Below, in pieces: positions 7,941 through 64,000 of a DNA stretch of 64,000 nucleotides. The notes beneath the pieces are model-generated. The model worked only from the letters and a program-made list of their open reading frames with translations. It searched no databases and was not told the origin of the DNA. Within the stretch, counting starts at the first letter, position 1. Each line of letters opens with the position of its first letter. The translations under genes were made by a program, and so were the position numbers. Source of the stretch: Eledone cirrhosa (lineage: Eukaryota); contig CAXHJY010000601.1 in the NCBI GenBank assembly GCA_964016885.1, forward strand, positions 1 to 64,000. The letters run 5' to 3'.

Positions 7941-7989
<49 letters not shown>

Positions 7990-7993
<4 letters not shown>

Positions 7994-8182
7994 AAAATGT
8001 TTGACCCCAACAGCAGAGCTCAAGCCATTTCGACGGCTATTTCTGAACTCAGAAATAGCCGTCGAAATGGCTTGGGCTCTGTCATCGAGGTCAAACATTT
8101 TCCTATTACCCACTCTACTACCCTAAGTATTGAGTACTCTGGTGCGTTATGGTCCATCTGGTTCCTCACCACTCTTCCTTTG

Positions 8183-41008: not shown

Positions 41009-41017
41009 TATATATAT

Positions 41018-41190
41018 ATATTTAATATAGAAATGGGTTCTACAGCACTAGAACTGTTTCATTCGGAGGAAATCTTCAAGAAAGCAGTTCTAGTCCTGTA
41101 GAAGCCATTTCTATATTAAATATTTATACTCTGCTATGTATTGAGTACCTTACTTACTGCGGTTACCTACAATTGAACCTGGGATAAACA
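41018..41190. mobile_element. fold-back element: about 105-bp palindrome plus tail
   Basis: Arms 41018-41060 and 41080-41123; centre on the minus strand reads TTGAAGA-TTTC CTCC GAAT-GAAACAGTT; tail contains GTATTGAGTAC. Confidence 0.75.
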
Positions 41191-53090: not shown

Positions 53091-53092
<2 letters not shown>

Positions 53093-53297
53093 GGAACGAG
53101 TAAGACCCCGACGGCTGAGCTCAAGCCGTTTCGACGGCTAATTCTGGACTAAAAATTTTTAGTCCAGAATTAGCCGTCGAAACGGCTTGAGCTCAGCCGT
53201 CGGGGTCTTACTCGTTCCTATTACCCACTCGACTACCCTAAGTATTGAGTACTTTGGTTCGTTATGGTCCACCTTGTTCCTTACCACATTTCCTTCG

Positions 53298-56939: not shown

Positions 56940-57175
56940 CGCCTAAGCATTCCACAGACACGTTCACCATTAATCTACTTCTCAGGGAGATTCAGCTGGA
57001 TATAGTGTGTGACAAGGCTGACCCATTCAAATGCAGGTAGAACTCAGTTAAGTCAGCTAAATGAACTGGAACCACGGGAAATAAAATGTCTTCCTCAAGG
57101 ACACAACTCGCCACTGGGAATCGAACTCACAACCTTACGATCGTAAGCCGAACACCATAACCACTAAGCTACGGG
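56940..57175 (-). mobile_element. tRNA-derived SINE (second family)
   Basis: Minus strand GTAGCTTAGTGGTTA...GAGTTCGATTCCC head, then GTGTCCTTGAGGAAGAC. Confidence 0.85.
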
Positions 57176-57219
57176 ATTTCACAGAAACGTAAGCAAAGCA
57201 AGAACCAATGTAGCTTTCA

Positions 57220-57570
57220 TTTTTTTTTCGTCTAGATTTAAATGTCTTTATTTACAATAGTTTATAACTTTGCCTATTAAACCATATGGTGAGCAAATGG
57301 GGTCCTACGTGCTGGCCTCCCCACAGCCCCGGCGGACAGAATGGAGAAGGCGTTTCCCCGGAGGATGGTAAGGGAGATGCCTTGGAAGAGCCAATCTAAC
57401 TCGCGAGGCTCACACCTGCATCTAGCCAGCTCAGCGCCTATGGAGGTGAATAAGGAGGTAGCCCTAGGGCCAAGGACACCAGAAGTCTCCACTGCCAAGG
57501 GCACGACCGCGAACCTGTCGGAGAGCGACCGGTACTTGGAGAGTTTGGCCTCCTCAGCCCGACGTGCAGC
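57220..57570 (-). mobile_element. CRE-like RLE non-LTR retrotransposon, 5'-truncated 3' end
   Basis: Open frame RAEEAKLSKYRSL...VVPLAVETSGVLGP...LFQGISLTILRGNA; stop, AATAAA (57247-57252) and poly(A) (57220-57228) on the minus strand. Confidence 0.8.
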
Positions 57571-57880
57571 GACGAATTGGCAGTGTCGCTAGAACGTCGG
57601 ACAGGATGCTTTGCAATATTTGCTTTGGCTCTCTTCTCTTTGAGATCAAATCCCGCTGAGGCCAACTTTGTCTTTCATCCATTCAAGATCGATGAAAAAA
57701 GTACCAGTTTCGTACTAGGATCGACTTTTCCTCTATATCCCTGTCTCACTCTCTATCCTTCTCTGGAAGAAATCTGCTATATTCAGACCTGCGAAGAGAT
57801 GGGCTCCGCCAGATTTTTAAAGTGCCTGAGAAACACCGTATGCAACACGGCGCCCAATGACTCCCTCAGAAGTCACGGGA
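57568..57880 (+). mobile_element. SINE variant with long alternative tail
   Basis: GCGACGAATTGGCAG head, GAGATCAAATCC B box; homologous to 55130-55455. Confidence 0.78.
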
Positions 57881-58533
57881 TCAAAATCAAAACAAAGGAA
57901 TTCTTACATAACAACCTCAGTTGAGAAGCAGTAGCTATGAGCAAGGATTGCGTGGAGTCGGAGGAGGGCCCATGAATATTTCACACACTGCTTAATAAAA
58001 CCCATTTGATTTTGAAATGAACTCGCATCCCACATTATGTTATAATGCTGTGGCTACATAAAGCACCAAGATGTATCTTAAATCTGAAAACTATTCATTC
58101 CACTGACGTCACTCCCAACTATAATTTAACACACTATATATTTTTCCACTCTTTGTATTACAATAATCTACACTCTAGTTCCATCAAAACGAACAGACAT
58201 TCACACATGTACATGTGTGTGTGCGTGTGTGTAAATATTTGGTTTCTACATTGCGTGTGTACATATATATAAACGGAAAAAATGAAACGAAATTTCATTT
58301 CCCACTCTTAGTACGGCTGTTACATAAATATAAGTATGTATACGTACATACATATATGTATACAGCGTACAGTAGTATGTATATATATATACATACATGC
58401 ACACATATATATATGTACGTATGGATTCACCGAACATTTATTATAATGCTCGGTGTGTTTGTAAACAAACATCCCGTATTAAGCCATAGTGTCTAGCAAC
58501 CATCGTTGCTCGTTTGTTCAACACTGACAAAGG

Positions 58534-58578
58534 AACGCTGTACTAGTTTCAAGCTTATTAGCTATTGTCAGCAACGTT
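58534..58578 (-). ncRNA. hammerhead ribozyme (left-arm copy, core CTGACAA)
   Basis: Mirror of 58812-58856 with a G8-to-A change. Confidence 0.65.
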
Positions 58579-58811
58579 TACCTTCCTGCCGGATGATTGA
58601 ACGTCTGAAAGTATATACTTTCCTTATGGATATTAACGGCTGAGTAGCCCAATTTGCATATCGAGTGGATTAATCAGCCGCGTGCACCGAAAACGATAAA
58701 CGGTGCACCCCGCCGATTAACCCACTCGATATGCAAATTGGGCTACTCAGCCGTTAATATCCACAAGGAAAGTATATACTTTCAGACGTTCAATCATCCG
58801 GCAGGAAGGTA

Positions 58812-58856
58812 AACGTTGCTGACGATAGCTAATAAGCTTGAAACTAGTACAGCGTT
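58812..58856 (+). ncRNA. minimal type I hammerhead ribozyme
   Basis: AACGTTG-CTGACGA-T AGCT AATA AGCT T-GAAA-CTAG-TA-CAGCGTT: 7-bp stem I, palindromic ACTAGT stem III, GUA site. Confidence 0.82.
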
Positions 58857-59088
58857 CCTTTGTCAGTGTTGAACAAATGAGCAACGATGCTTGCTAGACA
58901 CTACGGCTTAATACGGGATGTTTGTTTACAAATACACAGAGCATTATAATAAATGTTCGGTGAATCCATACGTACATTTATATATGTGTGCATGTATGTA
59001 TATATATATACATACTACTGTACGTCTGTATACATATATGTATGTACGTATACATACTTGTATATATATATATATACAATATATTAAT

Positions 59089-59269
59089 TGTCTCTACTTT
59101 AGGCACAAGGCCAGCAGTTAACCAGTGCATTACTGGTACTTTATTTTATCGACCCCGTAAGGATGAAAGGCAAAGTCAACCTCGGCGGGATTTGAACTCA
59201 GATCGTAAAGGGACGTAATTATGCTGGAAAGCATGGCGTCCGACCCTCTACTGATACTGCCAATCCACC
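59089..59269 (-). mobile_element. SINE, full length with 8-bp TSD
   Basis: ATATTAAT at 59081-59088 and 59270-59277; intact A and B boxes. Confidence 0.93.
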
Positions 59270-59329
59270 ATATTAATAAATGGAAACTATATTTATAAAA
59301 CCATAATTATTTTATTATATATATTTCAA

Positions 59330-59513
59330 GGCGGTGAATTGGCAGTATCGGTAGAGGGCTGGACGCCATGCTTTCTAGCACAGTTTCGTCCCTTTACGGT
59401 CTGAGTTCAAATCCCGCCGAGGTTAACTTTGCCTTTCATCCTTACGGGGTCGATAAAATAAAGTACCAGTAATGCACTGGGTAATTGCTGGCCTTGTGCC
59501 AAAAGGAGAAACA
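59330..59513 (+). mobile_element. SINE, full length with about 17-bp TSD
   Basis: ATTATATATATTTCAAG(G) at 59314 and 59514; intact A and B boxes. Confidence 0.95.
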
Positions 59514-59608
59514 ATTATATATATTTCAAGGGCAACCAAGGTAAATTATGGTGCGCTTTCATCAGATAAAATAAATATGTTGAAACCCAACAAATTAAAT
59601 ATAACCTC

Positions 59609-59647
<39 letters not shown>

Positions 59648-59794
59648 GAGTATATGTTGGTTATTTACCGACACCTCAGTATGGAGATTGGAGCACTCGA
59701 CGAAGTGCGCAGGTTGGTTTGGTTACTCCGGATTAATGTAAAATAAAATAGATAAGTCAAATATTTAAAATTTGGCTTCGTTTATTAAAGGTGT

Positions 59795-59849
59795 ACTGCT
59801 ATATATATTTTGGTTACAGCCATCCTTGGCTGTGACCTCTTCAGGCAGT
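59795..59849 (-). ncRNA. hammerhead ribozyme (left-arm copy, GAAA changed to AAAA)
   Basis: Minus strand ACTGC-CTGAAGA-GGTCACAGCCA AGGA TGGCTGTAACC-AAAA-TATATA-TA-GCAGT. Confidence 0.65.
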
Positions 59850-60065
59850 CCGAATTGGTGTGGTAGAGACAGGTACGCATGTTGTTGAGGTGTTTAACTC
59901 CGCCAATCCTCCGATATGCCCACTTCCTGGTCGGTTGTTATTTCTCTGAGGAACAGGAATCATATCAGAGAAATAACAACCCGACCAGGAAGTGGGCATA
60001 TCGGAGTCTTGACGGAGTTAAACACCTCAACAACATGCGTACCTGTCTCTACCACACCAATTCGG

Positions 60066-60120
60066 ACTGCCTGAAGAAGTCACAGCCAAAGATGGCTGTC
60101 ACCGAAATATATATAGCAGT
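60066..60120 (+). ncRNA. type I hammerhead ribozyme
   Basis: ACTGC-CTGAAGA-AGTCACAGCCA AAGA TGGCTGTCACC-GAAA-TATATA-TA-GCAGT: 5-bp stem I, long stem II, AUA site, AATAAA just downstream. Confidence 0.82.
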
Positions 60121-60169
60121 ACACCTTTAATAAACGAAGCCACATTTTAAATATTTGAGTTATCTATTT

Positions 60170-60237
<68 letters not shown>

Positions 60238-60241
<4 letters not shown>

Positions 60242-60395
60242 ATAATAATAAATTTGAAGACTAAAATCCAAAGAGGGCTCGATAAGGATAAATATATATC
60301 AAATATATAAGAACCGTAGAGCAAATATTTATTAAGAAGATCCCGTTAAGGATGAAAGCAGCGATTCTTTGCTTAAACTTTAATCTGTTATTTTA

Positions 60396-60400
<5 letters not shown>
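60238..60400. mobile_element. family C (TA)n-targeted non-coding element
   Basis: Homologous to 42781-42890, 45790-45935 (reverse) and 40905-41008 (reverse); always abuts (TA)n. Confidence 0.75.
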
Positions 60401-60434
<34 letters not shown>

Positions 60435-60460
60435 AAGAAACCTTATATATATATATATAT

Positions 60461-60978
60461 ATAAGGTTTCTTGGTGAGGAGGGTGACTTTGGACATCCTG
60501 CAGGACTAAAAACAAAACCTGTCAAAGGGCAAAGGAGCTCTTAAGAGTCAATGGCCATCCAAAATCACTGGGAGAGATGACCCCTTAGCCTTTGTCAAGG
60601 CAGAATTCTAGGAGAAGGAAAACTCTGATATAACACCTGCAACCCTGATGGTATCCAATGATGTTGACTTGTTCTTCTTTTTGGTAAATATCATCTTGGT
60701 TAAGAGAGTGGGACTGGCTTTGTGCAGTGCCTTTGCTCACTATAAAAGCTTCACAGCACAGGCATTGCTTTATATCTGGAGATCTCTCTGCACTTGCCGT
60801 CACATGGTACCATGGGCCCAGCACTATGTGTCAATAATTGTCACAAGTGTAGTGTTTGTACCAGAGTTTTCAAGTCGCTGGCTGGACTAAAAAGTCACAC
60901 TCGTTCAGCGCATCGGTAGGGGTTCTCCTACATGGATATAAAGTAGTGGCCGTACTCGAAAACGAGTTGGCAGCCACC
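60461..60978 (+). mobile_element. short internally deleted RTE-like element
   Basis: GGAGAAGGAAAACTCTGA motif (also near 44835) plus terminal C2H2 finger HKCSVCTRVFKSLAGLKSHTRSAHR-stop at 60842-60919, short 3' UTR and (TA)n. Confidence 0.55.
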
Positions 60979-61484
60979 ATATATATATATATATATGTTC
61001 ACACACAATGTAGAAACTAAATATTTACACAGTAAATATTACCAGTTTCGTACTAGGATCGATTCTTCCTCTATATCCCTTTCTCACTCTCTATCCTTCT
61101 CTCGAAGAAATCTGCTATATTCAGACCTGCGAGGAGATGGGCTCCGCCAGATGTTTAAGGTGCCTGAGAAACGTCGTATGCAACATGACTCCCTCAGAAG
61201 TCACGTGATATATATACATATATACATAAATACATGCATGCATGCATACATGCATACATACATACATACATACATACATACATACATACATACATACATA
61301 CATACATACATACATACATACATACATACATACATACATAGATTGATACACACAGAAATACATACACACAGAAATACATACATACGTAGAGATATATAAA
61401 TATATAATTTGTATATACACACACAAACACATTCTCTCTCTCTCGCACATACACACACACACTCTCTCTCTCTCTCTCACACAG

Positions 61485-62466: not shown

Positions 62467-62520
<54 letters not shown>
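61830..62520. repeat. very long (TA)n-based compound microsatellite
   Basis: About 690 bp; directly abuts the Penelope-like element. Confidence 0.97.
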
Positions 62521-62521
62521 C

Positions 62522-64000
62522 ATATAACTGTACATCAAACCTGTACACTATGGATTGTACTACATACAACAACTTCATTCGGAAAGAATTACATAAAAAA
62601 TATAGAAAAACGAGTGAAGTAACCCTTAAGCACATCAATGATGAGGCATGCGAAATAGTGAAAAATCTCGGAATCGAAGATAGGACAGGACCACTCTTAC
62701 CGGCGGTACCCACCTTCAATCTTAAGGACCACAAGGTAAACTTTGATAATGACCCTAAAATTAGATTAATCTGCCCCTCTAAATCAGATATAGGTAAAAA
62801 TAAGCAAATATATCTTAGATAGAATCATCCCCCAAATTAAGGCTAAGGTTAACATTAAACTCTGGGGGAAGACCCAAGAAGCAATAAGATGGTTTAATAG
62901 CATTAGCAATAAGAATAAATCTAAGTTTATCCAGTTTGATATCGATGAATATTACTCATCGATACCACCTGAAACTTTGAATAGAGCCATTAAGTTTGCT
63001 AAGGATAACTCTGACCTTACAAACGATGAAATTAAGATTATATTAGAAGCTAGGAAAACTATAGTCAAATTTGAGAACAGTTATTGGGTACATAAAGATA
63101 GACCCTCTAACTTTGACATAACAATGGGCTCTAACGATTCGGCGGAAATAACTGATATTGTGGGGTTATTTATCGCCTTTAGACTCCAGGAAAAATTCAG
63201 CAATCTCCACGGCGGAATATACCGCGACGATGTTCTCCTCCTAGCTAAAAACCTTAATAACCAAAAACTAGAAAAACTACGCAAAGATATAAGAAAACTA
63301 CTACTCGAAATAGGACTAACTATAACATATGAATACAACCTTAAAGTAGTTAACTTCCTGGATGTCACACTCAATTTAAACTCTGGTTTGATTAAACCGT
63401 TTCATAAATTGAATGAAAATCTCAAATACGTAAATGTTGGGTCTAACCACCCCATCTCTATAATTAAATCTATCCCTAAAAATATTTCCCTTAGAATCTC
63501 GGGTCTATCTTCTAACATACAAGTATTTAAGGAACACGCCGAGTACTACGATAACGCCCTTAGTAAAGCAGGCTACCTCAACAAAATAGAGTACATAGAT
63601 GGGAACAATCAAAACACCCAAAATAAATCCCACATAGGTAGATATAATAACACAACACCAAACCACACTTACTACCATAGTATGCACACCAGTAAACCAA
63701 CAAACAAAACTAATAGAAAGCGATGCAAAGAGTACTTATGGTATAACCCCGAATACAATAAAACACCAGAGCCAAAGAAATGTAACAACTTTAGCAGAAA
63801 AAGCTTGGACGCTCAGGGATAGCGATCAAAAGTTTACCCTAAAATGGGAGAAATTAGCTAAAACCCAAAGCTTTTCCAGGAGCCAAAATCTCTGCAAATT
63901 GTGTAATCTTGAGATTTATTACATAATCACACACAAGAAGAAACTGCTGAATAACAGAATTGAACGAACATTATTCTGCCGTCACAGAACTAAAACCCTT
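62522..64000 (+). mobile_element. Penelope-like retroelement, Naiad-type, 5'-truncated, runs off the window
   Basis: Motifs LKDHKx[39 protein letters not shown] (63220-63231), FLDVTLNL, SNHP, LWYNP, CKLC...LLN...CRH; inserted at (TA)n. Confidence 0.9.
62532..64000 (+). pseudogene. PLE RT plus partial GIY-YIG endonuclease ORF, disrupted
   Basis: Frame 3 at 62532-62798; +1 slip in the A5 run 62796-62800; frame 1 open 62800-63762; jump to frame 2 at about 63761 (KHQSQRNVTTLAEKAW...CRH) with the N-terminal GIY-YIG half missing. Confidence 0.85.

Follow-up and report, generated by a model that had tools for sequence, protein, structure and literature searches.

The inverted repeat at positions 58270-59077 of the window, the 64,000-nt stretch of Eledone cirrhosa DNA that was analysed, is read from its sequence as an insertion of an animal non-LTR retrozyme with Penelope-type ends, belonging to a family that was not found in the literature searched. 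It is probable (about 70%) that the palindrome is a single head-to-head insertion in a TA microsatellite made by a borrowed Penelope-like reverse transcriptase/endonuclease, likely by two-ended priming on the same RNA. The family has a defined repeat unit that occurs in tandem arrays and in thousands of copies, with a head-to-head layout, a short and a long end and variants shared between the arms of an insertion.

Two arms of about 360 bp with few mismatches around an 11-nt loop had been described in a first-pass annotation and are present. The arms are 96% complementary and gap-free over 58366-58689 and 58701-59024, 11 nt apart, and a gapped match extends to approximately 58321/59070 with 15 mismatches and one gap in 370 columns. 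The left arm (58270-58703, minus strand) contains a complete 428-nt unit and about 6 nt of the one before it, and terminates beside a TA-rich flank at what we call long end B, unit position 428 (positions 1070-1496 of locus L001 are unit 1-428). The right arm (58701-59060, plus strand) is 5'-truncated, covers unit positions 8-368 and stops at short end A, where it runs into a (TA)n target-side flank (59061-59077) in which a target-site duplication is not discernible. The loop at 58690-58700 is native unit sequence of the left arm and is closed by a 3-nt CCG/CGG overlap between the arms at 58701-58703. The start of the feature had been placed at 58271; the palindrome stands, but this start takes in 61 nt (58270-58330, minus strand) that lie between ends A and B and occur on the left arm only. 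We call this segment a tail, following the usage in the available portions of PMC3846280, PMC8557442 and PMC11167929. The microsatellite-like outer thirds of the arms, with degenerate TA/TG-rich tracts at 58331-58420 (minus strand) and 58971-59060 (plus strand), belong to the unit and not to the target site, being present in tandem monomers as well. An AATAAA follows each hammerhead, as annotated, about 100 nt beyond each cut site (58948-58953 on the plus strand; 58437-58442 on the minus strand, unit position 255). Rfam at its gathering threshold gave no match in the window, nor did ARAGORN over 57000-61000 or Pfam on two window frames.

Scanning both strands with a descriptor gave three type I hammerhead cores in the window, including the two outward-pointing motifs already noticed, one per arm; the third sits in an adjacent palindrome at 60071-60115. 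The right hammerhead (58800-58865, plus strand) has an extended, bulged stem I, CUGACGA and GAAA, and its core at 58819-58849 is predicted to cut after A58849 of the GUA at 58847-58849. The description of this core as intact holds for the conserved elements, since CUGANGA, GAAA and NUH are matched exactly in type I order, and calls for a caveat on the helices. A U.U pair underlies the 4 bp of helix II, and helix III consists of a single base pair with a palindromic CUAG loop, in place of the usual G10.1-C11.1 pair and a stable helix III. Both features have been described in active, dimer-dependent animal hammerheads, and hammerheads with such a helix III cleave poorly without a second copy on the same RNA, according to the sections available of PMC7229834 and PMC4209133; for axolotl retrozyme hammerheads the former gives weak monomer cleavage (6% and 22%) and much better cleavage of dimers. 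The left hammerhead (58525-58590, minus strand; core 58571-58541) carries the G8A substitution noted earlier, at 58566, and is predicted to be inactive. G8A is a CpG transition, and the resulting CTGACAA core is also found in 4 of 127 distinct family copies.

The hammerhead fold is well supported by the motif and at most modestly by covariation, and cleavage is predicted. The stem I pair 58816:58852 is U.G in some subfamilies and G.U or A-U in others; an outer pair of the same stem is A-U in some and U.G in others. The covariation analysis of 40 sequences gave 13 cells with two-sided change, in 2 pairs, a pair count not above that of shuffles (473/500) and one that speaks to stem I, as helices II and III are fixed by the sequence selection. 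The 76-nt hammerhead region folds no better than its shuffles (z -0.3). It is likely that the ribozyme would need a dimer partner that neither strand of the palindrome supplies. There is one sense core per strand at the palindrome; neither strand has two, and therefore no monomer could be released from this locus. Single-arm RNA could also fail to cleave even if the family is active. The palindrome copy is best explained as a dead end, with one sense hammerhead on each strand and the left one decayed.

A genome search with one arm returned 1,291 candidates, and the 40 that were scored showed 93-96% identity; around these scored matches the arm sequence recurs both head to tail and head to head. 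The unit was defined from 28 whole monomers (median 97% identity) as 428 nt with 38% GC, and its predicted cut falls after position 156. An exact 40-nt core occurs 4,687 times in the genome against 0 for the reversed control, and for a variant core the count is 14,795, a part of it from sister subfamilies whose units measure 466-538 nt. Head-to-tail arrays reach 11 and more units. Two consecutive intact units, the minimum that the available part of the preprint 10.64898/2026.07.22.740005 asks of an 'active' retrozyme, are absent at the palindrome and present at other family loci. Long arrays were seen at G000:C1:51775036-51793007 (L159-L161) and at L137, where the same variant is found in every second monomer (period 842), the pattern that repeated copying of a dimeric RNA or circle would give. 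AATAAA is retained in 123 of 138 unit copy matches versus 50 of 77 sister matches, counts in which loci overlap. Modelled as a circle, the monomer folds at z -7, with 0 of 100 shuffles as low, partly due to the TA-rich tract.

Arrays terminate at one of two fixed unit positions, 368 (short end A) and 428 (long end B), and usually run into (TA)n there; the window palindrome has one of each, with B and its tail on the left and A at 59060 on the right. These ends were counted in 70 loci, one per cluster from the first 100 listed core matches, a sample biased towards exact-core copies on one contig; overlapping loci, L159-L161 (an array of more than 18 kb) and BLAST pieces lying only in the microsatellite-like tract were left out. 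A head-to-head pair was present in 33 of the 70 loci, with 35 head-to-head junctions versus 2 tail-to-tail. The 34 pairs away from a locus edge (one edge pair in each set was excluded from the end-type counts) comprised 26 A+B, 1 B+B and 0 A+A, and 7 with one end elsewhere. Finding A+B in 26 of 27 pairs has p about 2e-7 against free choice of ends. Among 28 further loci, picked by similarity or by chance, 14 of 18 pairs were A+B and 1 was A+A. The palindrome combines an inverted 5'-truncated copy, a tail at one end and a (TA)n target, and the accessible text of PMC3846280 and PMC8557442 gives this combination as the signature of Penelope-like elements. In vitro, as far as the consulted part of PMC11167929 reports, a Penelope-like protein with a predicted dimeric form cuts both strands and extends them, and its reverse transcription starts at two sites that bound the tail.

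The simplest single account that we infer has one RNA copied into two cDNAs, one beginning at A and the other at B, which are joined at the points where synthesis ceased. Tandem arrays would be transcribed and then cut by dimeric hammerheads into monomers, possibly circles. A Penelope-type dimer would cut both strands within (TA)n, and cDNA would start at A from one DNA end and at B from the other, 60 nt apart. Both cDNAs would stop early and be joined by a few bases of microhomology or by filler; joining would leave the 5' ends central and the 3' ends outward. Of the 52 junctions, 22 overlap by at least 2 bases, 5 are near-blunt joins and 25 have a positive gap; these gaps are BLAST measurements that partly consist of unit sequence split off by the reference, and they weigh against joining by clean microhomology.

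The mirror arm could instead have been made by self-priming, in which the cDNA made first folds back on CCG/CGG and copies itself to the short end; the available part of PMC3846280 proposes an antisense RNA in this role. The window palindrome agrees with this, since its loop is native long-arm sequence closed by 3 complementary bases and its short arm is nested within the long one. A single fold-back requires one arm to be nested inside the other and is compatible with 13 of the 26 A+B pairs. The remaining 13 fit a single fold-back in neither direction, whichever arm is taken as template and even when slack is allowed, and in a second set of loci 5 of 14 A+B pairs were not nested and 9 were. 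Fold-back also gives no reason for a stop at A, and among the long arms of pair-free loci 13 of 38 likewise have their 3' end at A. Self-priming is for these reasons considered an unlikely origin, although it retains some weight.

Variants speak to whether one RNA was copied. In the 36 pairs (of 52) whose arms could be compared at 80 or more positions, non-consensus variants were shared at 41% within one insertion versus 20% between insertions (1,810 pairs), and rare variants were 8 times more often common to the arms of one insertion than between insertions. In the window, 6 variants (3 rare) are common to the two arms, which disagree at 11 of 265 positions. Shared rare variants are predicted by fold-back too; it is the combination of non-nested arms with shared variants that favours priming from both DNA ends on one RNA. 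Against a single-RNA origin, the arms still differ by 4.2% on average, and the shared variants might also stem from one source locus or from later gene conversion.

Two independent insertions, or later DNA repair or gene conversion, might also be invoked to account for the inversion. The family is abundant and targets (TA)n, which the unit itself resembles, and the 4% difference between the arms would be natural for separate events. However, 35 head-to-head junctions versus 2 tail-to-tail, the strict pairing of a short with a long end, a centre without spacer and the 3 rare variants common to the window arms all speak against it, and we regard this origin as very improbable. The possibility that the palindrome is an assembly or library fold-back artefact, the contig being an unplaced one of 92 kb, deserves slightly less credence again. 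Among the listed contigs and reads of 6 short-read runs no piece bridges the centre, as an artefact would predict, but this is a very high-copy repeat and the reads possibly come from other individuals; the unit family is present in these data. Fifteen sites, several of which are CpG transitions, distinguish the arms, only one arm has a tail, and the layout recurs with different centres on chromosome-scale contigs. Because of this divergence, the one-sided tail and the recurrence on large contigs, the palindrome is taken to be genomic.

The first-pass annotation had proposed that a transcript of the palindrome would face a choice between a long double-stranded hairpin and ribozyme folding, with the antisense arm made first and able to mask the hammerhead. 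The masking is borne out by the folding model, in which 145 of 150 right-arm bases of the plus-strand read-through RNA are already paired when the cut site appears. The choice is not, as there is no competition: the predicted hairpin has -618 kcal/mol, and in the full RNA the pair probability is 0.0 for stem I and 1.0 for the mirror pairing of the hairpin. Stem I reaches 0.13 in the single arm and 0.47 in the 66-nt motif. By this modelling the hairpin suppresses the hammerhead in read-through RNA and no choice is made; such RNA, if transcribed, would be one of many passive dsRNA substrates, in the form of a hairpin of about 360 bp. Since head-to-head pairs are seen at 33 of 70 loci, the layout of the palindrome is a routine product of insertion. 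A selected RNA switch between the hairpin and an active ribozyme with poly(A) signals would have the layout as it was described, and would fit the AATAAA kept in most family copies. Against such a switch stand the stem I probability in the full RNA, the one sense core per strand and the dimer-type helix III, the CpG decay of the left core and the frequency of AATAAA in the window at large (3.8 per kb). The same layout also recurs with different centres at those 33 loci, and the adjacent palindrome repeats it with another family. We find a selected switch scarcely credible.

That adjacent palindrome, at 59660-60179, is a second head-to-head hammerhead palindrome from an unrelated family (1,876 candidates). 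The core on the right, at 60071-60115, is intact and that on the left carries a G12A change at a CpG; a long tail is found on the left arm, and on the right the arm ends short in (TA)n, in keeping with the same short-and-long rule. Other inverted structures in the window include a perfect 130-bp palindrome at 53091-53220 and a related one of 118 bp at 7989-8106 (88%), both of which come after (TA)n and are followed by the same one-sided extension, and a small palindrome at 41013-41128 built from the terminal part of a further hammerhead family, one that L067, L071 and L078 contain as well. At 59085-59517 two repeat copies about 92% alike lie head to head, 58 nt apart; we take these repeats to be SINE-like. 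Close SINE pairs in about 1.09 Mb of DNA were tandem in 11 cases, head to head in 5 and tail to tail in 1, numbers too small to tie these repeats to the same insertion machinery. Over 4179-45650, 16 of 17 SINE-like matches are on the plus strand, a bias that might mark an intron.

Coding Penelope-like elements are abundant in the same genome, with 10,596 GIY-YIG candidates, and some of them form kilobase palindromes. Such palindromes with mirrored ORFs were seen at L067 and L077, the latter with one short and one long end. One family, which we label Neptune-type from its CX4CXXC motif before GIY-YIG and not from a tree, encodes reverse transcriptase, CX4CXXC and GIY-YIG (L065, L066, L069, L077) and has 5,674 exact cores. 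Across 25 loci examined it showed short and long ends in 6 of 6 pairs, and its hammerhead combines U.U at helix II with a helix III of 1 bp and a palindromic loop. It resembles the retrozyme unit in the short-and-long rule, in both hammerhead oddities, and in CTTA near the short end and CCGT.TA near the long end; it differs in having no alignable homology to the unit and a tail of about 40 nt. The Neptune-type family is only a candidate source of the partner enzyme. When 14 pLTR/3' regions of coding elements were aligned to the unit, no score rose above that of the best shuffle, and in 50 GIY-YIG loci and 30 loci of the element at 62500-64000 no unit homology was found beyond apparently separate insertions. 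No ORF for reverse transcriptase and GIY-YIG was found joined to the unit, the tblastn matches in 78 family loci having the look of neighbouring insertions. The window itself holds, from 62540 to 64000 and onwards, a damaged member of a coding Penelope-like family that is very young, its other copies having a reading frame of 785 aa still open and 98% identity. This family gave no Pfam match, its 3' region also has a microsatellite-like tract, and from its motifs it is presumably Hydra-like.

The palindrome locus itself is an ordinary, probably dead insertion and the interest is carried by the family statistics. The origin of the inverted ends of Penelope-like elements is stated to be open in the part of PMC8557442 available to us. 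The near-strict short-and-long rule, the arm lengths that exclude a single fold-back in half of the pairs and the shared variants together provide a testable model for these ends, and two-ended priming fits the two in vitro start sites in the consulted section of PMC11167929. In its general form the model would hold that head-to-head Penelope-type insertions, coding and non-coding alike, arise when a dimeric enzyme primes both cut ends on one RNA, with one subunit for each fixed start site and no self-priming, the retrozyme RNA being a circle that is read repeatedly; we give this generalisation an even chance. If two-ended priming is true, it ties the retrozyme to Penelope enzymes by mechanism and not by homology, and provides thousands of natural products of the reaction. 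Should hairpins be preformed in roughly half of many thousand insertions, these would supply long dsRNA in large amounts and in that case bear on what the accessible text of PMC5625713 reports for octopus, a high density of hairpins and hyper-editing.

In comparison with known systems, the unit has the properties of a retrozyme: a tandem unit within 150-450 bp, GC under 50%, one type I hammerhead per unit, many dispersed copies and, judged by the ORF lengths of the doubled unit, neither protein nor LTR structure (no long ORF, the longest being 49 and 102 aa). The closest relatives in kind are the animal non-LTR retrozymes of Cervera and de la Pena 2020 (PMC7229834) and of Li, Clavereau and Pollet 2026 (10.64898/2026.07.22.740005), which, in the sections available, are likewise non-coding tandem units of low GC occurring as monomers to multimers. 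Among the axolotl motifs presented there, Amex1 has a 1-bp helix III with a palindromic tetraloop and Amex2 has U.U at the base of helix II. The unit described here differs from what those sections contain in its length of 428 nt, at the top of the 150-450 bp range, in uniting both oddities in one motif and in its internal microsatellite-like tract; for the present unit the linear and circular monomer RNA characteristic of retrozymes is a possibility and cleavage a prediction. The head-to-head arrangement with fixed short and long ends, seen here at about half of the loci, was not found in the available text of PMC7229834 (in which 'inverted' occurs 0 times) or of the preprint (once). The parts of the literature that were searched contained no cephalopod retrozyme and no count of the short-and-long rule, though the supplements of PMC7229834 and of the preprint may list the family.

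The second known system is the inverted pLTR insertions of endonuclease-positive Penelope-like elements. As described in the portions at hand of PMC3846280, PMC8557442 and PMC11167929, these have the same 5'-truncated head-to-head copy and one-end tail, and they share the (TA)n targets, the hammerhead in the repeat and microhomology at the 5' junction. They differ in that the unit here has no ORF in it or linked to it and has a tail of 60 nt versus their 30-40 nt. In those portions the explanation offered is self-priming, where one is offered at all, whereas a single fold-back is excluded for half of the pairs here.
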